From: Bacteroidales bacterium
Lineage (GTDB): Bacteria > Bacteroidota > Bacteroidia > Bacteroidales > FEN-979
Length of the DNA: 64,000 nucleotides
NCBI GenBank assembly: GCA_023231065.1
Contig: JALNWE010000001.1
Span: forward strand, 13,005 to 77,004
Reading direction: 5' to 3'
The position numbers and the translations under genes are program-made. The notes under the pieces were generated by a model, which saw nothing but the letters and a program-made list of their open reading frames with translations, had not been told where the DNA came from and ran no database searches. Shown here one piece after another: positions 18,301 to 54,484 of this stretch (its first letter is position 1; every line of letters begins with the position of its first letter).

Positions 18301-18318
18301 TTGTTATTTAATTAACAA
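18301..18318. promoter_or_regulatory. Rex-operator-like palindrome TTGTTATTTAATTAACAA
   Basis: 13/14 half-site match to TTGTTAA-N4-TTAACAA. Lies just upstream of and overlapping the -33 region of the putative hydC1 promoter. Confidence 0.55.
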
Positions 18319-18346: not shown

Positions 18347-18364
18347 CTGTTAATATTTTCACAA
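18347..18364. promoter_or_regulatory. Rex-operator-like palindrome CTGTTAATATTTTCACAA
   Basis: Half-sites cTGTTAA / TTCACAA with a 4-nt spacer, 54 bp upstream of the hydC1 ATG. Confidence 0.5.
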
Positions 18365-18417: not shown

Positions 18418-18882
18418 ATGACAGAGTGCCAGGAATTAATTAAAGAATTGGCAGACAAATATGGCCGGGAAAGAGCCAGTCTGCTACCCATACTTCAGGG
18501 GGTTGTCGAGAAAAATAATTACATCTCAGACACTTGCATGACTGATATTGCAAAGGAGCTTGATCTTTCTGCTGCCCAGGTATATGGAACAGCTACTTTT
18601 TATTCCTTTCTGGATACAGAACCAAGAGGAAAATATGTCATCCGGGTATGTAAGACGATAACATGCGATATGCATGGAAAGAAAATGATCATCCAGACCC
18701 TGGAAGATATGCTTAAAATAAAGGTCGGAGAAACCACCCCGAATAAGAAATTTACCTTACTCGAAACCAATTGTCTTGGTTGGTGCCATGAAGGGCCTGC
18801 CATGCTTATTAATGAAAAGCCCTTCAGTGGATTGACAACTGAAAAGGTGCATGACATCATCAGTGAATATATCAATAAATAA
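18418..18882 (+). CDS. hydC: [FeFe]-hydrogenase NuoE-like [2Fe-2S] subunit (locus 1)
   Basis: 154 aa. Thioredoxin-like 2Fe-2S Cys pattern VCKTITCD...NCLGWCHEGP. Confidence 0.9.
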   Translation: MTECQELIKELADKYGRERASLLPILQGVVEKNNYISDTCMTDIAKELDLSAAQVYGTATFYSFLDTEPRGKYVIRVCKTITCDMHGKKMIIQTLEDMLKIKVGETTPNKKFTLLETNCLGWCHEGPAMLINEKPFSGLTTEKVHDIISEYINK

Positions 18883-24949: not shown

Positions 24950-24976
24950 AAATGAACAGTGCAAAGAAATAAAACC

Positions 24977-25675
24977 ATGAATCAAAGGATAAAAATTCTG
25001 TTGGTCGAAGATGATCCAAATTTTGGTTCAATCATGAAATCATATTTGGAATTAAATGATTTTGATGTGATTTTAAAGATTGATGGGAAACAAGGATTGG
25101 CTACCTTTAAAACCATGGTTTTTGATATTTGTATCCTCGATGTGATGATGCCCGAAATGGATGGTTTTACTTTAGCCAGGGAGATAAAGAAGATCAACAG
25201 CCAGGTACCACTAATTTTTCTCACCGCCAAATCGCTGAAAGAAGATATGTTGGAGGGGTTTAAAACAGGTGCGGATGATTATATAACAAAACCATTTGAT
25301 TCTGAGGTTCTTCTGTTTAAACTTAGGGCGATTTTAAAAAGGAACAGCCAAAAAAGTGAAGCGGAAAACGATTTTATCAGCATCTCCATCGGAAAGCTAC
25401 AATTCAACTTTGCGCTCCGTACATTAGCGTTAGACGAACAAGTTCAACAACTTTCCCCAAAGGAGGCAATGCTTTTGAAAATGCTGGTCACATCAAAAGA
25501 AGGTATCCTGTCACGGAAAAATGCCCTGGAAAAAATCTGGGGTTCCGACAACTATTTCAATGGCCGTAGTATGGATGTCTTTATAGCCCGGTTAAGAAAA
25601 TATCTGAAAGCAGACCCTTCTATTGAAATTGCAAATATTCACGGGAACGGTTTCCGTTTAATTGTTACACGGTAA
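24977..25675 (+). CDS. OmpR/PhoB-family response regulator
   Basis: REC (ILLVEDD..ILDVMMP..K) plus a winged-helix C-terminus. Start moved to the ATG at 24977. Confidence 0.9.
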   Translation: MNQRIKILLVEDDPNFGSIMKSYLELNDFDVILKIDGKQGLATFKTMVFDICILDVMMPEMDGFTLAREIKKINSQVPLIFLTAKSLKEDMLEGFKTGADDYITKPFDSEVLLFKLRAILKRNSQKSEAENDFISISIGKLQFNFALRTLALDEQVQQLSPKEAMLLKMLVTSKEGILSRKNALEKIWGSDNYFNGRSMDVFIARLRKYLKADPSIEIANIHGNGFRLIVTR

Positions 25676-25786: not shown

Positions 25787-25821
25787 TTGTGAATTTATTC
25801 ACATTGTGAATATTTTAACAA
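25787..25821. promoter_or_regulatory. two abutting Rex-operator-like palindromes
   Basis: TTGTGAATTTATTCACAT (25787-25804) and TTGTGAATATTTTAACAA (25804-25821) share one base (17-bp register). Each has one half-site mismatch to TTGTGAA-N4-TTCACAA. Confidence 0.65.
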
Positions 25822-25826
25822 AAATA

Positions 25827-25858
25827 TTTGGAAGTTTGTTTATCGCGTTGTAATTTTG
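25827..25858 (+). promoter_or_regulatory. putative Bacteroidota promoter (-33 TTTG, -7 TAATTTTG)
   Basis: TTTG at 25827-25830 and TAATTTTG at 25851-25858 (20-bp spacer), 25 bp upstream of the ATG at 25883. Confidence 0.4.
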
Positions 25859-25882
25859 CAGTAACATTTATCATTAAAAAAA

Positions 25883-26227
25883 ATGAAGGTACAAGAAGTC
25901 GTAAAATTGATCAATGGGACAGTCATGACAGGGAATAAAAACCCGGAAGTGACTGTTGATGTTGCTTTTGCTTCGGATCTGATGAGCGACGTCCTTACCA
26001 TTAAAGCAGAGAATCTTTTATTATTAACCGGTTTGGTTAATATTCAGGCGATCCGGACTGCTGAGATGTCAGACATTTCCTGTATTGTTTTTGCAAGGAA
26101 CAAAAATGTAACAGAAGAAATGATCCGCCTGGCTGAAGAGAATGGCATTACAGTCATTGAGAGCCCATACTCATTATTCCGTATCAGCGGGATTCTGTTC
26201 ATTGCGGGAATGGCTCCTGTATATTAA
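25883..26227 (+). CDS. DRTGG domain protein (copy 1)
   Basis: 114 aa. ASDLMSDVL...LLLTGL..IRTA...IVF pattern of the DRTGG domain. Confidence 0.78.
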   Translation: MKVQEVVKLINGTVMTGNKNPEVTVDVAFASDLMSDVLTIKAENLLLLTGLVNIQAIRTAEMSDISCIVFARNKNVTEEMIRLAEENGITVIESPYSLFRISGILFIAGMAPVY

Positions 26228-29153: not shown

Positions 29154-29181
29154 TTTTTTACTTTTACAATTAGTTTTTTAT
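29148..29181 (+). terminator. AT-only hairpin + T-run between regulatory and structural halves of locus 2
   Basis: AACTAATT/AATTAGTT 8-bp stem, 12-nt loop, then TTTTAT. Weak because there are no GC pairs. Confidence 0.3.
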
Positions 29182-29239
29182 AAAAAAGTTAATAGAAGAA
29201 CAATAAAATTTTACCATTTTTGCAGTGAAAGATTTAGCA

Positions 29240-34435: not shown

Positions 34436-35674
34436 CTAATAAAATTTCATGGTAACCTCTTTGAGGAATTTTTCTTCAAGGGTACGCGCTATACGGTGAA
34501 CCACGGTCCTGCGTAATTCAAGCTCTATGGGTAAAGTCGGATCCTGGTGGGCAATATTAATGTTTGTACCCACAAGAAAATGTATTTCGTCACAATCAAG
34601 GATCATACGGACAATTTCATCGGCAGGCCCCTTCCCCAGTTTGTAATTATTGTGATATTTTTTCAATAGTTCGCTCGTTTTACTAAGTGTCAGGATCCCT
34701 TCGGTGATAAGATCGACACCATTCATATTGGAAACAGGTGGCAAGTCAGGATCAAGCATGACGTTGGTGTCGTGTATTTCTTCGCTCCATTCACGGGCTA
34801 TCATATCGCCTGTGGTTGCGCCACAGATGATTTTTTTCCCCTGAAATTGTTTGAAAACATCGCAAAACAGGGAATCGTTTTCGGGATTTTGAGGAGGGCC
34901 GGAGCAGATCATTATTTTCCGGGGCTCCCTGAAATAGATAACACCGCAACTGATATCGTCCCTGGGATGAAAACCATCATTCATATTGGCCCTGTTGACC
35001 ACCTTGGCGGCCAGGTTGACAGCCGATATATCATGTTCATCCTGGATGGTCTCTAAAACATATTTCTCAAGATTGACTGTCCCCCACCCCAGGGAATATT
35101 TTTCGCTACCCAAACCAGATTGGGTTACGCCATCGGAACAGAAGACGATCCGGTCTTCTTTCTGTGGTTTGTATGATGCTGTAAGAATTTCCCTCCCGCT
35201 CCTTTTACCACCTTCAAGAACAATACAATTCCATTCCGGTTCGTGGATATGGTTACCGCGAAGGACCATGGTTTTTGGGTTCTCGTATTCCAGGATCCGG
35301 ACTTCCCCTTCCACATCAATCTCGATGATAGTAAATGTGGAGTAGTTCATATTCTTCACACTATCAACAGGTAATGTATCTGTAATAATCGCCGCGATCT
35401 TCTGGACACTTTTATGTTCCTGGGTAAAATTCACAGCAAGGGTAGCGGCTAAGGTCCCAAGCATATTGGCTTTAATCCCATGGCCCATTCCGTCGGATAA
35501 AACGACAATGATCCTTCCTTCCTCTTTGATCCTTCGCGAAATAAAAACATCACCACAGACCCGTGCATCTGCATGGCATTTTTGCTGACAGGTTACTTCT
35601 ATGTAAAATCGTTCGTTCAAAGCTGACAGGTATGAGATTTCTCTATTTTCCGGTAGGATTCCGGTATGATTCAA
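34436..35674 (-). CDS. PP2C/SpoIIE-family serine phosphatase with uncharacterised C-terminal domain
   Basis: 412 aa. GDVF...VVLSDGMGHGIKANM and DGV..SG motifs. ~180-aa C-terminal domain of unknown function. Start overlaps the upstream sensor gene by 32 nt. Confidence 0.85.
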   Translation of the reverse strand: MNHTGILPENREISYLSALNERFYIEVTCQQKCHADARVCGDVFISRRIKEEGRIIVVLSDGMGHGIKANMLGTLAATLAVNFTQEHKSVQKIAAIITDTLPVDSVKNMNYSTFTIIEIDVEGEVRILEYENPKTMVLRGNHIHEPEWNCIVLEGGKRSGREILTASYKPQKEDRIVFCSDGVTQSGLGSEKYSLGWGTVNLEKYVLETIQDEHDISAVNLAAKVVNRANMNDGFHPRDDISCGVIYFREPRKIMICSGPPQNPENDSLFCDVFKQFQGKKIICGATTGDMIAREWSEEIHDTNVMLDPDLPPVSNMNGVDLITEGILTLSKTSELLKKYHNNYKLGKGPADEIVRMILDCDEIHFLVGTNINIAHQDPTLPIELELRRTVVHRIARTLEEKFLKEVTMKFY

Positions 35675-37520
35675 TTACCGAATTGAGCATTTGTTCTGTT
35701 TTTGCTGCCCCTTCGCCGAGCAAATAAGCAATTTTCTGAACGGTTTCAAAATTTTCATCGATAACTTCGGTCAGACGATTAATAATTTGTTCTTTTCTGA
35801 CTTCAGGGACATACATGTCGCGCAGGATTCCACCCACATATTTATGGCTCCGGATGGGAAAAATGGAAATGCTGAGCTTATTCTCTTCGTACAAAACATC
35901 TTTATGTTCTATATATTCATCGGTGGAGAGGACATAAGAAAACATTTTATAAATATTGACAGGAAGCAAGGTTTTCAGATCTGCTCCAACCAACCCCGGA
36001 ATAACTTCATCCACCAGGGTCGCTTCTTCGCCAAGGATGCGGATGAATGCCTTGTTGGATTGTATAACTTTTAATTTATCATCAACAATTACAACGCCGG
36101 ATACGAGTTTCTGCAACATGGCAGATACGATATTGTTTGCCTCTTTTTGCGCCTCCTGTTCGTTTTTTGCTTTTTCCTCTGATTCTTTCAGGGCAGCCTG
36201 TGTCTTTGCCAGTTTTTCATTGGTGGCACGAAGGGTCCGGATATATTCCTGTCTGTTTTTTCCGCTAAAGACATGACACATTTCGGTTGTTGCCAATCCC
36301 TGAGCTATGGCAATAGCAAATTCCCGACAATTTGAATAACCGCAGGATTCACAGCCCACCTCGTTGTTTTTATCATCTTCCCGGTGGATCATTTTAAGCA
36401 CTTCCACTATTTTTTGTTCTTCAGGAACTGGTAAGCGTTGATCATCGGCGTTGAATTGCCTTGACAGGTCAAGGTCTTCACAAGCAGCCACCTGATCTTC
36501 CCAGGTATTCTTGTCAAATGTTGTAAGCCGTTTGTTGGCGTAATCAGTAACCAGGGTCATCCGGAGGAATTTTTCCCCAGCTGGCGAGGTACCGGGGCCC
36601 ATCAGGCATCCTTCATCATAAAACATATTAAAATGCCTTTTGATCCTATCAATCCGGGAATCGAATTCCTTCACTGCATCGATCATATCGTTGCGTCCCT
36701 CAGTCGTGATCACATTTCCAGTCAGTAAATCTTCACTGATATTGACACTTTGGAGAATTCCGTTGGCTATCGGATACAGGGAGCCTTTATAACCCAGGGG
36801 AGGGTCAAATTCAGAAAATTCAAGTTGATTTTCCCTGATATTAAACTGCGTGAAAAGTTCACGTAGCTCTACAAAAGTCAAAACTGCATCAATTTTAGCG
36901 TCCCCTTCAAATTTTAACGCTTCTTCCTTAGTAGCGATACAGGGGCCTATAAAGATTATTTTCAGATCCTGACCGTATTTTTTCCGGAGAACCTTGGCAG
37001 TGGCGACCATAGGAGAAACAACCGGTACCAGATTATTGATAAGTTCCGGATAATATTTTTCAATAAAGGCAACAACCGTCGGGCAATTAGCGGAAATGTG
37101 GTAGCGTCCTTTAAAATTCTCGAATATTTCTTTATATTTTCTGGCAACAAGGTCAACGCCGAAAGATACTTCGCTGACGTATGTGAATCCGAGTTGTTTG
37201 ATCATTTCAACGAATTTCCTGTAGTCTGTTATATCATGGAATTCGCCTGAAATTGTAGGGTCGCAGATGGCAGCAATTTTTTGGCCTGATGCCAGCAAGG
37301 CTTTTGTTTCACCGATAGAACTACGGTAAGAAATGGCGCCTGGGGAACAAGCCCTGTAGCAGCTTCCGCAGCCTATGCAACGCGCGGGGATGATGGACGG
37401 AAATTCCGTGTTGACATCAACCCTAATAGCTTTGACGGGGCATATTCTGATGCATGAATAGCATTTGATGCAGGATTCATGATGGATAAGCAGAAGATGA
37501 TCGGTACACATTGTGATCAA
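35643..37520 (-). CDS. hydS: putative sensory [FeFe]-hydrogenase-like protein with C-terminal PAS domain
   Basis: 625 aa. Two ferredoxin Cys motifs, ISANCPTVV / IGPCIATKEE / YDEGCLMGPG, CESCGYSNC-x16-C, a coiled linker, then a PAS-like ~120 aa. Confidence 0.85.
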   Translation of the reverse strand: MITMCTDHLLLIHHESCIKCYSCIRICPVKAIRVDVNTEFPSIIPARCIGCGSCYRACSPGAISYRSSIGETKALLASGQKIAAICDPTISGEFHDITDYRKFVEMIKQLGFTYVSEVSFGVDLVARKYKEIFENFKGRYHISANCPTVVAFIEKYYPELINNLVPVVSPMVATAKVLRKKYGQDLKIIFIGPCIATKEEALKFEGDAKIDAVLTFVELRELFTQFNIRENQLEFSEFDPPLGYKGSLYPIANGILQSVNISEDLLTGNVITTEGRNDMIDAVKEFDSRIDRIKRHFNMFYDEGCLMGPGTSPAGEKFLRMTLVTDYANKRLTTFDKNTWEDQVAACEDLDLSRQFNADDQRLPVPEEQKIVEVLKMIHREDDKNNEVGCESCGYSNCREFAIAIAQGLATTEMCHVFSGKNRQEYIRTLRATNEKLAKTQAALKESEEKAKNEQEAQKEANNIVSAMLQKLVSGVVIVDDKLKVIQSNKAFIRILGEEATLVDEVIPGLVGADLKTLLPVNIYKMFSYVLSTDEYIEHKDVLYEENKLSISIFPIRSHKYVGGILRDMYVPEVRKEQIINRLTEVIDENFETVQKIAYLLGEGAAKTEQMLNSVIESYRNPTGK

Positions 37521-37602
37521 TAATGATGGTCAAAGATATGAATATCTGTGGGTTTTTATGTTTTGGCTCAAAAAAAAAGGAAAAAACCTGGTAATAAAAT
37601 CT

Positions 37603-37637
37603 TTGTTTATTTTTTCACATTGCTAATTTTTTCACAG
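37603..37637. promoter_or_regulatory. two abutting Rex-operator-like palindromes (degenerate)
   Basis: TTGTTTATTTTTTCACAT (37603-37620) and TTGCTAATTTTTTCACAG (37620-37637) share one base, the same 17-bp register as at 25787-25821. They lie in the divergent hydS / hydC3 intergenic region. Confidence 0.5.
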
Positions 37638-37666
37638 GTAAATATTTCAGAATTAACTTTTATTGT

Positions 37667-37674
37667 TATTTTTG
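37667..37674 (+). promoter_or_regulatory. Bacteroidota -7 box TATTTTTG
   Basis: Matches TAnnTTTG, 29 bp upstream of the hydC3 ATG at 37703. Confidence 0.35.
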
Positions 37675-37702
37675 TAAAGAATAAACGATATATTTATGAT
37701 AT

Positions 37703-38167
37703 ATGGATGAAATTATCGGGATTGTTCTATCGAGATACCCGGCTGGCAAAAAAGAAGGGTTACTCCCGATCCTCCAGGAGATTCAGGAAGAAAAGGGTTT
37801 TTTAACCGGAGAAATCCTTAATGAAGTCTCTGCTTATCTTGACATTCCTGTCAATAAAATATATGGGGTCGCTGCATTTTATGATCAGTTTCGTTTCAAG
37901 CCCCATGGCCGTTTTCATATTCAATTATGCAATGGTACATCCTGTTATTTACACGGTTCTTTTCCTTTGTTGCGGGATTTGGAAAAGCAATTGAAAATCA
38001 AAGCTGGTAGCACGAGCCGTGACGGGAAGTTTAGCATAGAAATCATTCCCTGTATGGGGGCCTGCGAGCAATCACCTGTTATAAAAGTGAATGACACTTC
38101 TTACAATAAGGTCACCCAGGAAGATTTGAGGAAGATCATCCGAACCATAAAAGATAAATCTGAATAA
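37703..38167 (+). CDS. hydC: NuoE-like [2Fe-2S] subunit (locus 3)
   Basis: 154 aa. IQLCNGTSCYLHG...IIPCMGACEQSP. Confidence 0.9.
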   Translation: MDEIIGIVLSRYPAGKKEGLLPILQEIQEEKGFLTGEILNEVSAYLDIPVNKIYGVAAFYDQFRFKPHGRFHIQLCNGTSCYLHGSFPLLRDLEKQLKIKAGSTSRDGKFSIEIIPCMGACEQSPVIKVNDTSYNKVTQEDLRKIIRTIKDKSE

Positions 38168-38168
38168 A

Positions 38169-40118
38169 ATGTCAGCTTCAACCACCTTAAAGATTACAGA
38201 ATTTCTTGTTGAGAAGGTCGTAAAAAACTATTCGGGTTTTTATGATAAGGGAACTGCCGAGTTGCTTGCTCAGATAAAAAGGGAAAAAGTGACGCGCCCG
38301 GTCATTTATATAGGGATGGGGACTTGCGGTTTGGTTGCAGGAGCAGGTAAAACCATGAAAGCAGTTGAAAACTACCTGGAGGAAAACAAGCTGGATGCAG
38401 AAATAATCAAGGTTGGCTGCATCGGGCTCTGCTCTGCTGAACCAATCATGGATGTTCAATTACCTGGTAAGGCCCGGATTTCTTTTCAACATGCCACCGA
38501 AGAAAAGGTCGAAGACTTGCTGAATGCTGTTTTTCATCATACTCTGATGCACGACAATTCCCTGGGGCAATACCGTTTCTCCTCTCATGAGGATTGGCCT
38601 GGTTTACCTTATATTGAACAACTTCCATTTTTCGCTTCCCAGCGCAGGATTGTATTGCGAAATGCCGGGATTATTTCGCCTTTATCCATTCATGATTACA
38701 TGGCACGGGGTGGGTACAGGTCATTGTTCAAAACCGTTCTTAATTATACCCCTGAAAAGGTTTGTGAGATCATAGATCAGAGTGAATTAAGAGGACGCGC
38801 CGGCGGAGGGTACCCTACCGGTAAAAAATGGTTGGTCGCTTTGAATACTGGCAGCGATCAGAAATACCTTATTTGTAATGCTGACGAGAGTGATCCAGGC
38901 GCTTATATGGATCGGACACTTCTGGAAGGGGATCCTCACAGGGTGATCGAAGGGATGGCCATTGCAGCATATGCAATCGGAGCAAACAAAGCATTTATTT
39001 ACCTTAGGTCAGATTACAAGCAATCCATACTCCTGCTTCAACATGCATTACTGGAAGCCAGAACATGCGGTTTTTTAGGAGAAAATATTTTTGGGAGTGG
39101 GTTTAACCTGAGCGTTTTTATCCGCCAGGGCGCAGGCGCTTTTGTATGTGGTGAAGAGACCGCCCTGATATCGAGTCTCGAAGGAAGTCGCGGCATTCCT
39201 CATGAAAAACCCCCCTTTCCAGCTGAGAAGGGGTTGTTGGGACATCCTACCATTGTTAACAATGTTGAAACACTTGCCAATATACCACCCATTCTTGAAA
39301 ATGGCCCTTCATGGTTCAAAGCCATCGGTAAAAAAGGCAGCACCGGTACGAAAGTGATCTGCATCACCGGGAATGGGGTTCATACGGGTGTGGTAGAGAT
39401 TCCTATGGGAATAAAAATTTCGGATATTGTCTATTCCATCGCCGGAGGCATAAAAAATGATAAAAAACTGAAAGCCGTTCAGCTTGGAGGTCCGGCTGGC
39501 ATCTGCATTCCGCCCAAAGACCTGGATGTAGAAATAGGATATGATTCTTTGGAGGAGATCGGAGCCTCAACGGGTTTAGGAGGGCTTATCATTCTTGATG
39601 AAGATACCTGCATGGTAAATTTATCTAAATATTTTATGGATTTTCTACAAAAGGAAAGTTGTGGTAAGTGTATTCCCTGCCGTGAAGGAACAAAAAGAAT
39701 GTTGGAGATACTGGAAGGGATTACACGTCGGCCAAAAGAAGAGAGTTCGCATGAAACCCTTGAAAGGTTTAAAGGTGTTGTTCAACTGGAGAATCTGGCA
39801 GAAGTGATCAGGGATACTTCGTTATGTGGTTTGGGCCAGAATGCCTCAAACCCAGTTCTTTCAAGCCTTAAATGGTTCAGGGAAGAATATGAAGAACACA
39901 TCTTTGACAGGAAATGTCAGGCAGGCGTTTGTCATGATCTCAGGACTTTTTACATCGATGTTGAACTATGCAACGGATGCAATGTGTGTCAGAAAAAATG
40001 TCCTGAAAATGCCATCATTGGCTCCGTTAAGATGCCTCATTTCATCATCGAATCAAAATGTACCGGATGCGGAATCTGTTTTGACAGTTGTAAGTTCAGT
40101 GCGATCTATTTTAAATAA
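38169..40118 (+). CDS. hydB: NuoF-like flavoprotein subunit with extended N-terminal 2Fe-2S domain (locus 3)
   Basis: 649 aa. N-terminal GMGTCGLVAGAGKT...VGCIGLCSAEP, ELRGRAGGGYPTGKKW, ESCGKCIPCREG and a C-terminal 2x CxxCxxCxxxC. Confidence 0.93.
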   Translation: MSASTTLKITEFLVEKVVKNYSGFYDKGTAELLAQIKREKVTRPVIYIGMGTCGLVAGAGKTMKAVENYLEENKLDAEIIKVGCIGLCSAEPIMDVQLPGKARISFQHATEEKVEDLLNAVFHHTLMHDNSLGQYRFSSHEDWPGLPYIEQLPFFASQRRIVLRNAGIISPLSIHDYMARGGYRSLFKTVLNYTPEKVCEIIDQSELRGRAGGGYPTGKKWLVALNTGSDQKYLICNADESDPGAYMDRTLLEGDPHRVIEGMAIAAYAIGANKAFIYLRSDYKQSILLLQHALLEARTCGFLGENIFGSGFNLSVFIRQGAGAFVCGEETALISSLEGSRGIPHEKPPFPAEKGLLGHPTIVNNVETLANIPPILENGPSWFKAIGKKGSTGTKVICITGNGVHTGVVEIPMGIKISDIVYSIAGGIKNDKKLKAVQLGGPAGICIPPKDLDVEIGYDSLEEIGASTGLGGLIILDEDTCMVNLSKYFMDFLQKESCGKCIPCREGTKRMLEILEGITRRPKEESSHETLERFKGVVQLENLAEVIRDTSLCGLGQNASNPVLSSLKWFREEYEEHIFDRKCQAGVCHDLRTFYIDVELCNGCNVCQKKCPENAIIGSVKMPHFIIESKCTGCGICFDSCKFSAIYFK

Positions 40119-40125
40119 CAGGAAA

Positions 40126-41847
40126 ATGCAATTTGATATTGAGATCAACGATGAACATGTAACCGCAAAAAGGGGAGAAACGATAAAAAACGTTTTAGAC
40201 CGTATCGGGATCAAAGTACCGACATTGTGTTACATGAATGGATTTTCACCCACGGGAAGCTGTAGAATGTGTGTTGTGGAAGTAGATGGGATACCAGGGC
40301 TCGTTCCTTCCTGTTCTCATCTTGTTGAGGAGTGGATGAAGATAAAAACACATTCCCCACGCGTAATCAAAGCCAGAAAAACCCTGATTGAACTTTTGTT
40401 AGCCAGTCATCCAAATGATTGTCTTTATTGTGAAAAAAACGGTCAATGTGAACTTCAGGTTCTTGCGTCAGAGCTTCAGGTAAGGGAGCGAAAATATCAA
40501 TCGAAAAGGACTCCCATTCAAATTGATAAAATTTGTCCAAGTATTGAGCGGGATCCTGCAAAATGTGTCCTATGTGAAAGGTGTGTCAGGGTTTGCAATG
40601 AGATCATCGGGGTTGGCGCCATTGACATAATCGGCCGTGGAAGCGAGAGCCGTATTGGTACCACCTATAACAAAGGATTGAATGTTAAAGCCTGTGTAAA
40701 ATGCGGACAATGTATTCAGGTATGTCCAACGGGGGCATTAACAGAAAAACAGTCTTTTCAGGCTGTGATGGAAGCCCTGAATAAACCCGGACTTTTCCCC
40801 GTACTACAGTTTTCGCCCACAGTCCCAGCTGCTATTGCTGAGGAATTCAATCTGAAAACGAATAAAGATGTGCTAAACCTGTTAAGGGCCGCTTTAAAAA
40901 AGATGGGATTTCGCCAGGTATTTGATACTTCCATGGCAGCTGATCTGAACATCATGGAAGAGGCAGCTGAGTTCATCGACCGTTTAAAAAGCCAAAAAGA
41001 TCTTCCACTTTTTACATCTTGTTGCCCATCATGGGTTCATTTTGTCGAAGCGCTCAGGCCCGGATTTCTGCCAAAACTCTCTACCACCTTGCCCCCTCAG
41101 CAGATCATGGGTAGGCTTATCAAGCAGTATATTACCAGCTCGGCCGGGCAAAAGCCAGAGGATGTATATGTTGTCTCTGTGATGCCATGTACTGCTAAGA
41201 AAGATGAAGCAGGAAAAGATTATCTAAAGGATTCGGAAACCCGTTTTGTTGATGCAGTAATCACAACCCGTGAGTTAATCAAGATGATCCGGTTGATGGG
41301 CATCGATTTTTCAGGATTAGAGCCTGAGCCCAATGACTCTTCTTTTAGCATCAGGAGTTCTGCCAGTAAACTCTTTGGAGTTGCAGGAGGTCATCTTGAA
41401 GGTTTGATCAGAACCATTCACTTCAACCTTACAGGTCAGGAACTGTCACCATTAAAACTAACAGATTTAAGAGGTCTCAAAACCAGAAAAGAAACGAGGA
41501 TCAGACTTGGCAAGCAATTGATTAATGTGGTTTCAGTCAGTGGATTGGCCAACATTAAATCCATTCTTGATGAAATTGAAGCAGGTAAGGGAGATGTCCA
41601 TATCATTGAGGTCATGGCTTGTCCTTATGGATGCATTAACGGTGGAGGTCAGCCAAAAGGGAGTGATGAAAAGAGTTTAAAAGGAAGGATGAAAGTAATT
41701 TACGATGTTGATGAAGAAGAAATCATCAAAGTGGCTCATAAAAATCCGATTATGACTGGTTTATATGAAAAATTTCTTGACAGGCCCAACAGCGACAGAA
41801 ATAAAGAATTACTTCATGTTTTACGCAATTCAATCGAAATCCAATGA
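40126..41847 (+). CDS. hydA: [FeFe]-hydrogenase catalytic subunit (locus 3)
   Basis: Start at the ATG at 40126, after the hydB stop. P1 TSCCPSW, P2 MPCTAKKDE, P3 EVMACPYGCINGGGQP. Confidence 0.93.
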   Translation: MQFDIEINDEHVTAKRGETIKNVLDRIGIKVPTLCYMNGFSPTGSCRMCVVEVDGIPGLVPSCSHLVEEWMKIKTHSPRVIKARKTLIELLLASHPNDCLYCEKNGQCELQVLASELQVRERKYQSKRTPIQIDKICPSIERDPAKCVLCERCVRVCNEIIGVGAIDIIGRGSESRIGTTYNKGLNVKACVKCGQCIQVCPTGALTEKQSFQAVMEALNKPGLFPVLQFSPTVPAAIAEEFNLKTNKDVLNLLRAALKKMGFRQVFDTSMAADLNIMEEAAEFIDRLKSQKDLPLFTSCCPSWVHFVEALRPGFLPKLSTTLPPQQIMGRLIKQYITSSAGQKPEDVYVVSVMPCTAKKDEAGKDYLKDSETRFVDAVITTRELIKMIRLMGIDFSGLEPEPNDSSFSIRSSASKLFGVAGGHLEGLIRTIHFNLTGQELSPLKLTDLRGLKTRKETRIRLGKQLINVVSVSGLANIKSILDEIEAGKGDVHIIEVMACPYGCINGGGQPKGSDEKSLKGRMKVIYDVDEEEIIKVAHKNPIMTGLYEKFLDRPNSDRNKELLHVLRNSIEIQ

Positions 41848-43826
41848 GTCATTCTTATCACCGGCAGTTGGTTTTTACCATCAAGGAAAGATGCAGGGTT
41901 TGCTTTACCTGTGTAAGGGAATGTCCGGTAAAGGCCATTAAAATTATCAATGGCCAGGCTGAAGTTCTCAATGAGCGGTGCATTGGATGCGGGAATTGCG
42001 TCAAGGTTTGTAGCCAGGGTGCAAAAATCCCCCTGAATTCAGTCAATGAAGTGGAAGAAATGTTAGCATCTGATCATCTCATCGCGGCTTGCATTGCCCC
42101 CAGTTTTCCAGCTGAGTTTGAGGAAATTAAAGATCACCGGGTCATTGTTGGCATGGTACGGAAGCTTGGTTTCGATTTTGTTACGGAAGTTTCTTTTGGC
42201 GCTGATCTCGTAGCGCAAGCTTATGAAAAGAGACTTAAAAATGAACAGAAAGGAGGGGATATTTCTTCAGATTGTCCTGCCATTGTATATTTTATTCGTC
42301 AGTATAACCCCGATTTAGTCCCTTATCTTGCTCCTATTGCCTCCCCTATGGTTGCCATGACGCGGGTAATGAAAAAAAAACATGGGGCTGGTTTGAAGGT
42401 TGTTTTTATTGGACCTTGTTTCGCCAAAAAAGCAGAAACAGAAGAGGTGGATGAAGTATTGACCTTCAGGGAGCTCCGTGGAATGTTGCAGAAACGTAAT
42501 ATCTCTCCTGAAAACATTACCCCGTCTGAGTTTGATCCTCCATATAGCAGTAAGGGCGCCATTTTTCCTATAAGCCGGGGCCTCTATTATACTTCCAACA
42601 GTCAGGAAGCAATACCGGAAGAACATGTAGTGATAGCTGAAGGCCGAATTAACTTTAAGGAAGCCGTCAAGGAATTTGAAGATGGTTTTATCCGCGACAA
42701 GCACCTGATGCTACTTTGCTGTGAAGGATGTATCATGGGGCCCGGAACATCACCCGGAGGAAAACGGTTTTCACGCAGTGCGGCCGTCGGGGAATATGTC
42801 GGGAAAAAAATGCAGAATATTGACATGGAAACCTGGCAACGGGATATTGATTTTTACAGTGACATCGATCTTTCACAAAGTTTCAATCCAGAAGATCGCC
42901 GGCTCGGACCTGCCTCCAACGAAGATGTATTACAGGCGCTTCATGAAATGGGAAAGTTTACCGAGAAGGATCATCTGAATTGCGGGGCCTGTGGTTATGA
43001 TACATGCGTTGAGCATGCGACTGCCATTGTGCAGCGATTAGCTGAAACAGAGATGTGCCTACCATATACCATTGAAAAGTTACATGATTCGATCAATGAT
43101 CTTAATATTTCCAATGAAAAGCTTGCCCATGCGAAAGCAGCCTTAAAACAATCTGAGAAATTGGCCCACATGGGACAGCTTTCAGCCGGCATCGCCCACG
43201 AGTTGAATAACCCGCTGGGTGTTATTACCATGTACAGCAACATTTTAATGGATGAGGCCCCTGAAGGCGCTGCAGTCCGGGAGGATCTCAAACTGATCGT
43301 AGAACAAGCCGACCGGTGTAAAAAAATTGTCAGTGGTTTGTTAAACTTTGCCCGAAAGAACCAGGTGAATTTATCGGAGACGGATGTCGTAAAATTTCTC
43401 AACCACAGTGTCAATTCCATTATTAAGCCCGACAATATTACGATAACGGTTATACCCAACATCCAGGATCCCGTTGCTTTTCTTGATATTGATCAGATGA
43501 TGCAGGTTTTAACCAACCTTGAAAAGAATGCCATTGAAGCCATGCCCAATGGCGGATCGTTAACGGTCAGTGTAGAAGGGAATAAAGAGGAGGTTATTTT
43601 TATTGTGAAGGATACCGGAACAGGAATAGCGAAGGAATATATGGACAAACTTTTTACCCCGTTTTTTACCACCAAGGAGATGGGGAAAGGCACGGGGCTC
43701 GGGCTTGCCCTGATATATGGGATTGTCAAGATGCACAAAGGAAAGATCCACGTTGATTCCAATGATGATCCAGCCGCCGGACCCACCGGATCCACGTTCA
43801 GAATAACCGTACCGAGGGGCAGATGA
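41844..43826 (+). CDS. sensory [FeFe]-hydrogenase-like domain fused to a histidine kinase
   Basis: 660 aa. ATGA overlap with hydA3. Ferredoxin motifs, ISSDCPAIV / IGPCFAKK / LCCEGCIMGPG, CGACGYDTC-x16-C, then HisKA H-box IAHELNNPLG and HATPase_c (DTGTGI, GTGLGL). Confidence 0.88.
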   Translation: MSHSYHRQLVFTIKERCRVCFTCVRECPVKAIKIINGQAEVLNERCIGCGNCVKVCSQGAKIPLNSVNEVEEMLASDHLIAACIAPSFPAEFEEIKDHRVIVGMVRKLGFDFVTEVSFGADLVAQAYEKRLKNEQKGGDISSDCPAIVYFIRQYNPDLVPYLAPIASPMVAMTRVMKKKHGAGLKVVFIGPCFAKKAETEEVDEVLTFRELRGMLQKRNISPENITPSEFDPPYSSKGAIFPISRGLYYTSNSQEAIPEEHVVIAEGRINFKEAVKEFEDGFIRDKHLMLLCCEGCIMGPGTSPGGKRFSRSAAVGEYVGKKMQNIDMETWQRDIDFYSDIDLSQSFNPEDRRLGPASNEDVLQALHEMGKFTEKDHLNCGACGYDTCVEHATAIVQRLAETEMCLPYTIEKLHDSINDLNISNEKLAHAKAALKQSEKLAHMGQLSAGIAHELNNPLGVITMYSNILMDEAPEGAAVREDLKLIVEQADRCKKIVSGLLNFARKNQVNLSETDVVKFLNHSVNSIIKPDNITITVIPNIQDPVAFLDIDQMMQVLTNLEKNAIEAMPNGGSLTVSVEGNKEEVIFIVKDTGTGIAKEYMDKLFTPFFTTKEMGKGTGLGLALIYGIVKMHKGKIHVDSNDDPAAGPTGSTFRITVPRGR

Positions 43827-43908
43827 CCATTGACCATTGACCATTGACTATTGACTATTGACCATTGACTATTGACTATTGACCATTTGACTATTGACCA
43901 TTTGACTA
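43824..43908. repeat. 12-unit heptanucleotide tandem array TGACYAT starting on the TGA stop codon
   Basis: Units TGACCAT x3, TGACTAT x2, TGACCAT, TGACTAT x2, TGACCAT, T, TGACTAT, TGACCAT, T, TGACTA. It fills most of the 105-bp intergenic gap. Confidence 0.95.
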
Positions 43909-43930: not shown

Positions 43931-44335
43931 ATGAAACCGGGGAATGTGACAATTTTAATTGTGGATGATGATCAGGATTATCTGTTCCAGCTACAATCAA
44001 AAATTCAAAAATTTGGCTTTGAAACCATCACGGCAGATAGCCAGAAAGAAGCCGAGGAATTGATCGAAAAAATCAAGCCTGATCTTGCTATCCTTGATCT
44101 GATGATGGAGAACGAAGACAGCGGGTTCATCCTCTGCTACAAGATGAAAAAGAAGTACCCGGACGTACCGATTATTATTGCAACAGGGGTTATGGCGGAA
44201 ACGGGAATCAATTTTGATATCAATGACGAAAATAACCGTAAGTGGATTAAAGCTGATTGTTTCCTTGACAAGGGTATCCGTACGGAACGTCTAAAAGAAG
44301 AAATTGACAAATTGCTTATGAAATCCAAAACGTGA
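43931..44335 (+). CDS. single-domain response regulator (REC only)
   Basis: 134 aa. ILIVDDD...AILDLMM...T..K receiver signature with no output domain. Confidence 0.88.
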   Translation: MKPGNVTILIVDDDQDYLFQLQSKIQKFGFETITADSQKEAEELIEKIKPDLAILDLMMENEDSGFILCYKMKKKYPDVPIIIATGVMAETGINFDINDENNRKWIKADCFLDKGIRTERLKEEIDKLLMKSKT

Positions 44336-44381: not shown

Positions 44382-45515
44382 ATGTCAACATTAAAAATTC
44401 TTGTTGTAGATGACGAACCCGGCATACGCAGCGGTGTCACACGGATATTAAGAAATTTCAGGGTTGACTACCCTTTTATGGATGAAGCCTTTGATTTTGA
44501 AGTCTTAGAAGCTTCGACGGGGGAAGAAGGAATAGAGATCATAGAAAATAACCTCCCTGATATTTTACTTCTCGACAATAAATTGCCAGGCATCCAGGGC
44601 ATTGAGGTCCTTGAATACATAAAAAAGAAGCAGAAGAACATTATCGTTGTTATGATAACTTCTTATGCTTCCCTGGAACTGGCTGTAAAAGCGACCAGCG
44701 ATGGGGCTTATGATTTTATCCCGAAACCATTTACGCCCCAGGAGTTGAAGTCATCGATAGAAAACATCACCAAGCGCGTTTTTCTTAAAAAGATGACCAA
44801 TAAATTACAGGATACAGGAAAGCAAATCAGGTTTACTTTTTTATCATTATTATCGCATGAATTAAAAGCGCCGCTTAATGCCATTGAAGGATATCTAAAG
44901 ATGATCAAAGAGCGGCAACAGGGCCCAAAAATCGAAGATTATGATGTGATGATCGACCGGTCGCTTGACCGTATCAAAGGGATGCGTAGCCTCATCCTTG
45001 ACCTTCTGGACCTGACGCGGGTTGAATCCGGTAAAACCAAACGAGATATAACAGATGTTGATTTGGTCCAGATTGCAAGGACCGCCATGGATACCATGCG
45101 ACCTTACGCGATACAACGGGACGTAAAACTGGTTTTACATGGGGTGTCACCCCTGATGCTTCAGGCAGATGCAGAGGAAATTGAAATTATTTTCAACAAC
45201 CTCATTTCCAATGCAATAAAATACAACAAGGATGGAGGGACCGTTGATTGTACCATTGAGAGGGCAGATAGTTTTATGGTGATCAAAGTGGTTGACACAG
45301 GCATAGGAATGAGCCAGGCTGAAATCGAAAAGATCTTTGAAGATTTTGTAAGGATTAAAAACGAAAAAACAAAAAACATATCAGGAAGCGGATTGGGTTT
45401 GCCTATTGTTAAAAAATTCATTGATGAATATTCGGGAAAAATAGAAGTAAGCAGTGTCCCGGATCAAGGAAGTACCTTTACAGTAACTTTACCAATTGAA
45501 AAACCATGTTTATAA
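44382..45515 (+). CDS. REC-HisKA-HATPase_c hybrid kinase
   Basis: 377 aa. ILVVDDE..LLLDNKLP receiver, H-box LSHELKAPLNAI, DTGIGM and GSGLGL. Confidence 0.88.
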   Translation: MSTLKILVVDDEPGIRSGVTRILRNFRVDYPFMDEAFDFEVLEASTGEEGIEIIENNLPDILLLDNKLPGIQGIEVLEYIKKKQKNIIVVMITSYASLELAVKATSDGAYDFIPKPFTPQELKSSIENITKRVFLKKMTNKLQDTGKQIRFTFLSLLSHELKAPLNAIEGYLKMIKERQQGPKIEDYDVMIDRSLDRIKGMRSLILDLLDLTRVESGKTKRDITDVDLVQIARTAMDTMRPYAIQRDVKLVLHGVSPLMLQADAEEIEIIFNNLISNAIKYNKDGGTVDCTIERADSFMVIKVVDTGIGMSQAEIEKIFEDFVRIKNEKTKNISGSGLGLPIVKKFIDEYSGKIEVSSVPDQGSTFTVTLPIEKPCL

Positions 45516-46147
45516 GAAATTTACCTCATAAGACAGTGGAGCGGTTGAGCCAATATCGCCGTTCTTTGCTGATGATCCTTTCCAAAGAGAAAACCCATGT
45601 ATTTTCCCATGAAATTGCCCAGATGCTGCATATCACCCCGGTTCAGGTACGAAGGGACCTGATGCTGATCGGATATTCCGGAAATCTGAGAAAAGGTTAT
45701 GATATCAGGGAGTTGATCGAACTGATAGGAAAAATCATAGACTCTGAGAAAGGCCAGCGTGTAGCGGTTGTCGGGCTTGGAAATTTAGGAAAGGCAATGA
45801 TCAGCTATTTTAAAGGTAAACGATCTAAACTCACTATCATTGCTGCTTTTGATATAAATCCGGAAAAAATAAACCGCGTCTATGACGGTGTTGCTTGCTA
45901 TCATGTCAATCAGATGACAGATATCATCAAGCAAAACAATATTTCGATCGGAATTGTATCTGTTCCGTCGGAGCAAGCCCCTGAGATTGCTGAGACCCTT
46001 GTATTGGCTGGCATCAAAGGCATTCTCAATTTCACCCCAAAGCCGCTTAATGTGCCGCCTTATGTATATCTCGAAGAATACGACATGATCACATCACTTG
46101 AAAAGGTTGCTTTCTTCGCAAAGAAAAATGATGAACGTTTTAAGTAG
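45506..46147 (+). CDS. rex: redox-sensing transcriptional repressor Rex
   Basis: 213 aa. N-terminal wHTH (ERLSQYRRSL...ITPVQVRRDL), Rossmann VVGLGNLGKA, AGIKGILNFTP. The ATG lies 10 nt inside the preceding kinase gene. Confidence 0.9.
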   Translation: MFIRNLPHKTVERLSQYRRSLLMILSKEKTHVFSHEIAQMLHITPVQVRRDLMLIGYSGNLRKGYDIRELIELIGKIIDSEKGQRVAVVGLGNLGKAMISYFKGKRSKLTIIAAFDINPEKINRVYDGVACYHVNQMTDIIKQNNISIGIVSVPSEQAPEIAETLVLAGIKGILNFTPKPLNVPPYVYLEEYDMITSLEKVAFFAKKNDERFK

Positions 46148-53116: not shown

Positions 53117-54484
53117 ATGAAAAGTTGTAATCCGGTTAACAATGAATTGATCAGGGAATATCCCGGTCACTCTGTTGAAGAAGTAGATACTATTATTCAA
53201 TCGGTGCAAGTTGCATGGGAGGAATGGAGAGGAACATCGTTCGAATACCGTGCCGGTCTTTTCCGGAGTTGTGCGAAAATCCTGAGAAATAAAAAACACA
53301 TTTTTGCCCATTTGATGACCCTGGAGATGGGTAAGCTTATCCGGGAATCGGAATTAGAAATCGAGAAATGCGCCTTGGTATGCGATTTTTATGCAGACCA
53401 GACTGCGGTCCTGTTAAAGGATGAAGTTATCGGTTCAGATGCCAAAAAGAGTTTTGTTACCTATCAGCCACTGGGTATTATTTTAGCTGTGATGCCCTGG
53501 AATTTTCCGTTTTGGCAAGTATTCCGGTTTGCTGCGCCATCATTAATGGCAGGGAATGCGGCTGTTCTCAAGCATGCATCCAATGTCCCTGGTTGTGCGC
53601 TTGCCATTGAAGAAATTTTCCAGGAAGCCGGGTTCCCAACAGATCTGTTCCGCACCCTGATGATCCCATCCGGGATTGTTGACCATGTTATTTCACATCA
53701 TCACGTGAAAGCTGTGACATTAACCGGCAGCGAGGCGGCTGGAAGTCAGGTGGCTTCGCTGGCAGGGAAATACATCAAGAAAACCTTGCTGGAATTAGGC
53801 GGATCCGATCCTTTTATTGTTCTGGACGATGCCGATCTGGTTGCCGCTATTAAAACAGCAGTGACAGCAAGGATGATCAACCAGGGACAAAGTTGTATTG
53901 CTGCCAAGCGGTTTATTGTAATGAATTCGGTGGCAAAAGCTTTTGAAAAAGGACTTTTTGAAGCATTCAGATCATTAAAGCCCGGTGATCCAATGGATCC
54001 GGCAACCCAGGTAGGTCCTTTGGCCAGACCTGATCTGGTCGATGAAATTGAACGGCAGGTCAATGTATCTGTGGCTGAGGGTGCAAGGCTCATCCTCGGG
54101 GGGAAGAGAATGGCCCGGCCTGGTTGTTATTATGAACCCACGATCCTGACTGAAGTAAGACCGGGGATGCGGGTCTATCATGAAGAAACATTTGGGCCTG
54201 TTGCTACCATTATCCCTGTTGCCTCTGAAGAAGAAGCCATACATGTTGCCAACGACAGTGAGTTCGGTTTGGGTGGTTGTGTCTGGACCCGGGATTTATC
54301 CCGTGGGGAGATGGTCGCGCGTAAAGTCATGACCGGGGCTATGTTCGTCAATGGTATGACCAAGTCCGATCCCCGGCTTCCTTTCGGTGGTATAAAGAGA
54401 TCTGGTTATGGAAGGGAGTTGGGAGCGATCGGGATAAAAGAATTCGTGAATGCAAAAACGATCTGGATCGGGCCAGCGGAGTGA
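53117..54484 (+). CDS. NAD(P)-dependent aldehyde dehydrogenase (succinate-semialdehyde dehydrogenase-like)
   Basis: 455 aa. ELGG, catalytic QGQSCIAAKR, EETFGPV. Confidence 0.85.
   Translation: MKSCNPVNNELIREYPGHSVEEVDTIIQSVQVAWEEWRGTSFEYRAGLFRSCAKILRNKKHIFAHLMTLEMGKLIRESELEIEKCALVCDFYADQTAVLLKDEVIGSDAKKSFVTYQPLGIILAVMPWNFPFWQVFRFAAPSLMAGNAAVLKHASNVPGCALAIEEIFQEAGFPTDLFRTLMIPSGIVDHVISHHHVKAVTLTGSEAAGSQVASLAGKYIKKTLLELGGSDPFIVLDDADLVAAIKTAVTARMINQGQSCIAAKRFIVMNSVAKAFEKGLFEAFRSLKPGDPMDPATQVGPLARPDLVDEIERQVNVSVAEGARLILGGKRMARPGCYYEPTILTEVRPGMRVYHEETFGPVATIIPVASEEEAIHVANDSEFGLGGCVWTRDLSRGEMVARKVMTGAMFVNGMTKSDPRLPFGGIKRSGYGRELGAIGIKEFVNAKTIWIGPAE

Follow-up and report, generated by a model that had tools for sequence, protein, structure and literature searches.

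A putative tandem Rex operator with a 17-bp register at an [FeFe]-hydrogenase promoter of a Bacteroidales bacterium

The intergenic region between the divergent genes hydS and hydC3 carries a 35-bp element, which raises the question of what binds it, which promoter it serves, and what its unusual geometry could mean. We examined the element in the window, that is, the whole stretch of 64,000 nucleotides that was analyzed, and in related loci. The reading that we favor, with a probability of roughly 0.7, is a tandem Rex operator that would gate the hydC3-hydB3-hydA3 promoter by the NADH/NAD+ ratio, probably together with autoregulation of rex. On this proposal, the element would consist of 2 Rex-type palindromes with cores TGTKAA-N4-TTMACA, whose centers lie exactly 17 bp apart (Table 1).

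Table 1. Features of the hydS/hydC3 locus and of the sister composite at locus 2, in window positions
Feature	Position	Strand	Sequence, basis, or remark
Box 1 of composite operator	37603-37620		TTGTTTATTTTTTCACAT; Rex-like palindrome, weak left half-site TTGTTTA
Box 2 of composite operator	37620-37637		TTGCTAATTTTTTCACAG; left half-site TTGCTAA weak, right half-site TTCACA strong
Tentative -33-like element	37645-37648	+	TTTC; 18 nt upstream of the hydC3 -7 box
-7 box of predicted hydC3 promoter	37667-37674	+	TATTTTTG; form TAnnTTTG
hydC3, NuoE-like	37703-38167	+	Pfam, NCBIfam, start-codon check
hydB3, NuoF-like (FMN/NADH subunit)	38169-40118	+	Pfam, NCBIfam
hydA3, group A [FeFe]-hydrogenase	40126-41847	+	Pfam, NCBIfam
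HydS-like hydrogenase domain fused to histidine kinase	41844-43826	+	Pfam
Receiver-only response regulator	43931-44335	+	Pfam
Hybrid kinase/receiver	44382-45515	+	Pfam
rex, redox-sensing repressor	45506-46147	+	overlaps end of hybrid kinase gene
-7 box of predicted divergent hydS promoter	37531-37538	-	TATCTTTG; TAnnTTTG in close orthologues
hydS, sensory [FeFe]-hydrogenase-like	35643-37511	-	Pfam; start codon per P0001
PP2C/SpoIIE phosphatase	34436-35674	-	Pfam; divergent unit with hydS, 34436-37511
Sister composite operator, locus 2	25787-25821		near-consensus boxes, 17-bp register
Locus 2 composite, first box	25787-25804		TTGTGAATTTATTCACAT
Locus 2 composite, second box	25804-25821		TTGTGAATATTTTAACAA
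Locus 2 -7 box	25851-25858		TAATTTTG

The hydS/hydC3 intergenic region comprises 191 bp with 23% G+C. An earlier note on this DNA had placed 2 boxes here and a matching pair at locus 2, and its box coordinates and sequences proved exact, as did its distances to the start codons, with 66 nt from the end of box 2 to the ATG of hydC3 (37637 to 37703) and 62 nt at locus 2 (25821 to 25883). The two-site operator is real, and the 17-bp register claimed for both loci is the same. Each box at the hydC3 locus has 3 mismatches to the strict consensus TTGTGAANNNNTTCACAA and 2 to the degenerate consensus TTGTKAANNNNTTMACAA, and G3 and C16 are present in all 4 half-sites. The -7 box said to lie just downstream of the operator was also found, as a Bacteroidetes-type box, and the gap from the end of box 2 to the -7 box is 29 nt at both the hydC3 locus and locus 2.

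Sigma-A-type promoters of Bacteroidetes have the consensus TAnnTTTG at -7 and TTTG at -33, about 19-21 nt further upstream. The -33 candidate of the predicted hydC3 promoter reads only TTTC, with an 18-nt spacing to TATTTTTG, and a conserved TTC(A) block occupies this position in the orthologue alignment; from the Bacteroidetes -33/-7 promoter model, we tentatively assign this TTTC as the -33 element. Box 2 ends 7 nt before it, and neither box overlaps the -33 or the -7 element. Another promoter lying within the operator itself (TTTG at 37602-37605 with TAATTTTT at 37624-37631) was considered and rejected as unconserved, because the spacer of box 2 varies. An Rfam search for an RNA element returned a single sub-threshold sRNA match, elsewhere in the intergenic region, and no fold was predicted (z = +0.99).

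Single boxes of this quality were not counted as significant on their own. Sites with up to 3 mismatches to the strict consensus numbered 12 in the window vs 6.5 expected, and about 6% of shuffled intergenic regions contained at least 1 of them; this enrichment was too small, and pair statistics and conservation were used instead. With the degenerate consensus, which admits the G/T and C/A variants, 10 window sites had at most 2 mismatches vs 2.0 expected, and 6 of these 10 are the paired sites upstream of the window's 3 hydCBA-type operons. No pair at offset 17 arose in 300 whole-window shuffles that preserved dinucleotides, nor when the 191-bp intergenic region was shuffled 20,000 times; the pair goes far beyond what chance would give. 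At offsets of 12-30, the window contains only 2 pairs, both at offset 17.

For the comparison with relatives, we collected 80 metagenomic loci and several genome loci encoding HydS homologues. Scanning the genome collection with HydS alone yielded 3 loci only, and the useful set came from an alignment-based metagenome scan. The organism is a member of Bacteroidota near Draconibacterium; the closest genome match to the HydS of the window was a MAG of Draconibacterium orientale (81% identity). The divergent hydS/hydC arrangement holds in most of the collected loci. In the close set of 19 loci, with HydS identity of about 70% or higher, conservation within the intergenic regions is concentrated mainly in the 35-bp element, whose flanks diverge and whose upstream side is essentially unalignable. 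The earlier note had named orthologues without the paired half-sites as evidence that would speak against it; the pair is conserved in these 19 loci and in 46 of 68 distinct hydS/hydC regions, with HydS identity down to about 50%, although such counts, like the information content, are inflated by the choice of loci by motif match and by common ancestry. In lineages with 50-59% HydS identity, the composite reads CTGTTAA-N4-NTAACA-N-TGTTAN-N4-NTAACAG. Across the 43 distinct 35-mers, positions G3, T4, A15, C16, and A17 of box 1 and T2, G3, A15, C16, and A17 of box 2 are invariant, and among close orthologues the N4 spacer of box 2 varies (TTTT, ATAT, ACAA, ATTA, ACTT, and others) with the half-sites kept.

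Degenerate left and conserved right half-sites had been described, and this description is accurate for the hydC3 locus itself, but in the orthologues box 1 has either TTCACA or TTAACA as its right half-site. The weak left half-sites are preserved in the close set, TTGTTTA in 17 of 19 loci and TGCTAA in 15 of 19, and their conservation suggests tuned affinity rather than decay. In 627 kb of related loci, we counted 40 pairs at offset 17, 2 at offset 33, and none at any other offset of 10-40; the intergenic ends give the same picture, and the result for the 17-bp register is independent of selection by motif. The locus 2 composite is kept in 2 orthologous loci, L087 and L088. Since the 17-bp spacing is kept across many distant relatives, we regard the element as real and functional, and, judged from these alignments, the half-sites and the register are under strong purifying selection. 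A chance resemblance might have been suspected in intergenic DNA so rich in A+T, where single sites with 3 mismatches are common, but with no pair in 20,000 intergenic shuffles and one exact register in 46 of 68 loci, its probability is practically nil, and conservation already refutes it.

One part of the geometry did not survive the comparison. The single overlapping base had been presented as architecture, and T37620 is indeed common to box 1 and box 2 when both are written as 18-mers, but conservation is lower there than at any other of the 35 positions (A16 C4 G3 T20). As a constrained feature the shared base was rejected: only T or A occurs there in the 19 close relatives, yet all 4 bases are found across the 43 composites. 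Its 84% A/T is not an enrichment, because the DNA is already 77% A+T. By this alignment evidence, the shared base results only from taking the site to be 18 bp long, and the cores abut with 1 base between them.

The binder of the element is most likely Rex. The motif matches the general Rex consensus TTGTGAA-N4-TTCACAA and its variant TTGTTAA-N4-TTAACAA, and the genes downstream of the operator fit NAD(H)-linked redox targets (NuoE-like, NuoF-like, and [FeFe]-hydrogenase; Pfam). The regulator genes of the co-directional cluster end with rex, a position that is conserved, and rex is present in every extended locus examined. Its product carries the Rex domains PF06971 (Put_DNA-bind_N) and PF02629 (CoA_binding), exceeds the cut-offs of NF003995 (200.5 bits vs 126) and NF003996 (185 vs 138) in NCBIfam, and matches PDB Rex chains over its full length (E = 4e-32). 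In the lineage of L090 and L091, rex has its own upstream gap, there is no composite at hydC, and a Rex-like box with 2 mismatches, CTGTGATTTAATTAACAA (rex strand), lies directly upstream of rex (L090:5345-5362 and L091:1869-1886); the Rex recognition helix VQVRRD is identical in this lineage and in that of the window. In the Rex-DNA structure of T. maritima, Arg48 contacts a guanine, and the wings contact positions 1-2 in the minor groove (PMC8836258). The invariant G3/C16 is the base pair that corresponds to the Arg48 contact, and the Rex of the window keeps the corresponding Arg-Arg.

Further, hydrogenases are established or predicted Rex targets elsewhere: Rex of C. bescii binds the hyd and ech hydrogenase promoters in EMSA (PMC6391272), and Rex regulation has been predicted for hydrogenase in Caldithrix (PMC5317091) and for hfsABCD of T. 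saccharolyticum, with the motif TTGTTA-N6-TAACAA in its Thermoanaerobacterales form (PMC5886521). We also asked whether the composite tracks rex, and this attempt was uninformative, as rex was still present in the wider context of L055-type loci. In L055, L090, and L091, rex is in the cluster and hydC has no recognizable composite, only a single box with 4 mismatches, so the presence of rex does not predict that of the composite.

Because the Rex consensus contains TGTGA-N6-TCACA, sequence alone cannot separate Rex from Crp/Fnr. The right arms here read TCACA and the left arms TGTTT and TGCTA, with TGTTA/TAACA in distant lineages, and the boxes, upstream of -33 and with centers some 51 and 68 nt before an inferred start near 37680, take a position typical of activators. 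A Crp/Fnr-family or other symmetric dimeric regulator as the binder, with the neighboring rex coincidental, is nonetheless distinctly unlikely: rex is a conserved member of the motif-carrying cluster, L090 and L091 have a matching box right before rex, NADH-linked hydrogenases are known Rex targets, and no Crp/Fnr gene is among the annotated cluster genes. Moreover, the form TGTTAA-N4-TTAACA of the distant lineages departs from the CRP core and agrees with the motif described for Rex in Thermoanaerobacterales (PMC5886521).

The sequence TTTTTTCACA also occurs twice, 17 bp apart, as a direct repeat of TTCACA would, and a histidine kinase gene and an OmpR-type regulator gene (24959-25675) stand directly upstream of the locus 2 composite, an arrangement conserved in L087 and L088. 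A site for such a response regulator of the cluster is still very improbable, since both units are inverted repeats around a variable N4, with their arms conserved on either side and G3/C16 invariant in the 4 half-sites; conserved inverted-repeat arms fit a symmetric dimer, not head-to-tail binding. Sites of the OmpR/PhoB type repeat at about 10-11 bp, unlike the 17 bp here, and the regulators of the hydC3 cluster are without DNA-binding domains (Pfam).

With Rex as the most likely binder, the position of the element bears on which of the 2 divergent units it serves. The earlier note had suggested that one operator pair could control both, and the element does lie within the shared 191-bp region of a divergent hydS/hydC arrangement that is widely conserved. 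The distances count against this suggestion. A TAnnTTTG box starts 28-30 nt past box 2 in 26 loci, a constant gap on the hydC side, whereas among close relatives the composite lies anywhere between 79 and 102 nt from the hydS start. A separate conserved -7 box, 64 bp away from box 1, belongs to hydS, and relative to the inferred hydS start, near 37525 on the minus strand, the boxes are centered at about -85 and -102. In distant lineages, a gene of 82-84 aa separates the composite from hydS, and the composite stays beside hydC. The fixed distance to the hydC -7 box, the variable distance to hydS, and the separate hydS -7 box together argue that the operator belongs to the hydC3 promoter, and control of the divergent hydS-PP2C unit by the same pair is unlikely.

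The small gene of the distant lineages encodes a thioredoxin-like [2Fe-2S] protein and lies immediately upstream of hydS, co-directional with it (L019:2205-2453, L055:2234-2488, and L090:9737-9991). It was found in lineages with 50-60% HydS identity and is absent from the lineage of the window. In another locus, L017, a G+C-rich unit of ~90 bp (CCCTGGCCCCGGGTTCCGCCCAGGAAGAGCGGGGAATTTGCCGGGAGTGATTG...) stands twice in tandem between the -7 box and hydC, which shifts the composite to -296; the repeat resembles a small inserted repeat element.

In 46 related loci, the gap from the end of the composite to the following TAnnTTT(G/A) box is 0 nt in 11, 7-10 nt in 8, 28-30 nt in 26, and 4 nt in 1, and the first 3 of these position classes are spaced by about whole helical turns. 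In the 19 loci of the 0 and 7-10 nt classes, the composite abuts or overlaps the core promoter, which fits repression, this being the classic position of a repressor. At the hydC3 locus, simple occlusion is less obvious, since an operator that stops 7 nt short of the tentative -33, as box 2 does, is unusually placed for it. Rex could be imagined to bind and act from upstream as an activator or anti-activator, given that the class of the hydC3 locus and locus 2 ends 28-30 nt before -7 and covers neither -33 nor -7 and that 3 position classes spaced by about whole helical turns suggest a face-specific relation to RNA polymerase. We consider such a role improbable: the characterized Rex proteins are repressors released by NADH (PMC8836258, PMC6391272), the composite sits on or against the core promoter in the 19 loci, and a dimer 7 nt from -33 might yet be close enough to interfere sterically with sigma region 4 or the alpha C-terminal domain. 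Repression as the outcome of Rex binding is what we infer from these positions.

The regulated operon is likely hydC3-hydB3-hydA3 (37703-41847). Of the hydrogenase profiles, TIGR02512 scored 413.9 vs a cut-off of 405.95, and the A6 NADH-dependent model scored 662, below its cut-off of 765. We found no convincing plus-strand terminator between 37703 and 46147. The overlap of rex with the preceding kinase gene suggests that the two are probably co-transcribed, and, as no downstream terminator was seen, transcription probably runs on through the HydS-kinase, response-regulator, and kinase genes into rex. Judged from this gene layout, co-transcription of hydC3BA with the signalling genes and rex is probable. 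The order of the signalling genes is kept in L084-L086 and L091. L090 lacks the kinase genes, and its rex directly follows hydA. In the window, ~11 tandem 7-bp units (C/T)ATTGAC (43826-43905) fill the space from the HydS-histidine-kinase gene to the response-regulator gene; they could be a protein-binding array or a slippage-prone tract in the presumed operon.

In the mechanism that we propose, a low NADH/NAD+ ratio would leave 2 Rex dimers bound to the element, right before the -33/-7 core promoter, where they would lower transcription of hydC3-hydB3-hydA3. When NADH rises, Rex would leave the DNA, the NADH-linked [FeFe]-hydrogenase would be made, and reducing equivalents would be discarded as H2. 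A transcript that reaches rex would make rex autoregulated.

The fixed spacing would reflect cooperativity between the dimers. A center distance of 17 bp rotates the second dimer by ~223 degrees and thus places the dimers ~140 degrees apart around the helix. With wings at positions 1-2, as in T. maritima Rex, the wings of the inner subunits would meet at the junction, in the minor groove, and by this analogy a wing-wing contact there is a plausible source of both the strict spacing and the cooperativity. The number of mismatches to the strict consensus differs among the paralogous operons, with 1 + 1 at locus 2, 3 + 3 at the hydC3 locus, and 3 and 2 at locus 1, where the offset is 46 bp. This graded box strength suggests graded NADH thresholds among the operons, and we infer that the weak half-sites at hydC3, compared with the near-consensus boxes of locus 2, would set a lower NADH threshold for the hydC3 operon.

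A bolder extension is possible, and we offer it tentatively, with the odds against it: Rex of these Bacteroidota may function only as 2 dimers together, effectively a tetramer, on the 35-bp composite, with the register set by wing-to-wing or other dimer-dimer contacts, NADH thresholds set by graded half-sites at the 3 paralogous hydrogenase promoters, and 3 helically phased positions relative to the -7 box (0, ~9, and ~29 nt). If true, obligate paired Rex would be a cooperative binding mode and a promoter logic undescribed for Rex.

More than one Rex site per promoter is not in itself new. The cydA and ldh promoters of B. subtilis have several Rex sites. At ldh1 of S. aureus, 2 Rex sites resemble the present case in offering more than 1 box per promoter, which is thought to strengthen repression; the part of that source available to us describes no fixed abutting register (PMC2883068), and the spacing here is an invariant 17 bp. 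The Rex operators (ROP sites) of hydrogenases in Firmicutes, Thermotogae, and Caldithrix share with the present one the 18-bp palindrome, TTGTGAA-N4-TTCACAA or TTGTTAA-N4-TTAACAA, and the targets, which are NADH-linked [FeFe]-hydrogenases containing NuoE/NuoF and sensory clusters of the HydS/PP2C type. Linkage of rex to the hydrogenase genes, with probable autoregulation, is likewise found there, including in the rex-hyd operon of Caldithrix abyssi (PMC5317091). The differences are that the host here is a member of Bacteroidota with promoters of the -33/-7 type and that the boxes form an obligate pair at exactly 17 bp, present in deep lineages and at 2 or 3 promoters per genome, whereas the cited Rex cases have single sites or pairs at long distance, such as those at -150 and -31 of adhE (PMC5886521).

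A geometric likeness, as an analogy only, is offered by repressors outside the Rex family whose two-dimer operators overlap or abut. In DtxR/IdeR and in QacR, 2 dimers bind different faces of one operator. They share with the present case 2 symmetric dimers, a short composite site, and a fixed spacing that gives a defined mutual geometry.

Our search of open-access text found no paper on Rex in Bacteroidota and no description of a fixed 17-bp Rex tandem. Rex operators at hydrogenase promoters and the linkage of rex to hyd/HydS clusters are already known from other phyla, and what is new is the phylum and the obligate 17-bp tandem architecture, deeply conserved and found at more than one promoter in a genome. 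In Firmicutes, it is established that Rex controls fermentative hydrogenases, and such control has been predicted for Thermotogae and Caldithrix; Bacteroidota are major anaerobic fermenters of sediments, digesters, and guts. So strictly conserved a tandem suggests that H2 production would respond cooperatively, like a switch, to the NADH/NAD+ ratio, and it offers a precise, testable DNA target. Strong and weak versions at paralogous hydrogenase operons amount to a natural experiment on threshold tuning and on the order of hydrogenase use. As a search pattern, the composite is far more specific than a lone degenerate Rex box and could be used to map the regulon in AT-rich genomes of Bacteroidota.

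Other Rex-like sites were identified in the window. The third hydCBA-type operon (hydC1 at 18418) is preceded by the boxes TTGTTATTTAATTAACAA (18301-18318) and CTGTTAATATTTTCACAA (18347-18364), which are 46 bp apart and not 17, and the proximal box ends 6 nt before the -7-like TTTATTTG. At the internal promoter of locus 2 (29160-29215), the window holds only a decayed remnant, AAGTTAATAGAAGAACAA, and relatives have a further composite in the 17-bp register there (L084:19371, L085:19804, L086:17531, L087:4997, and L088:5054), located between a PHP-domain gene and a HATPase gene. A Rex-like site with 2 mismatches, TTGTAATCCGGTTAACAA (53125-53142), lies over codons 3-9 of an aldehyde dehydrogenase gene (53117-54484); it could be a chance match, with ~2 such sites expected per window, or a real Rex target.
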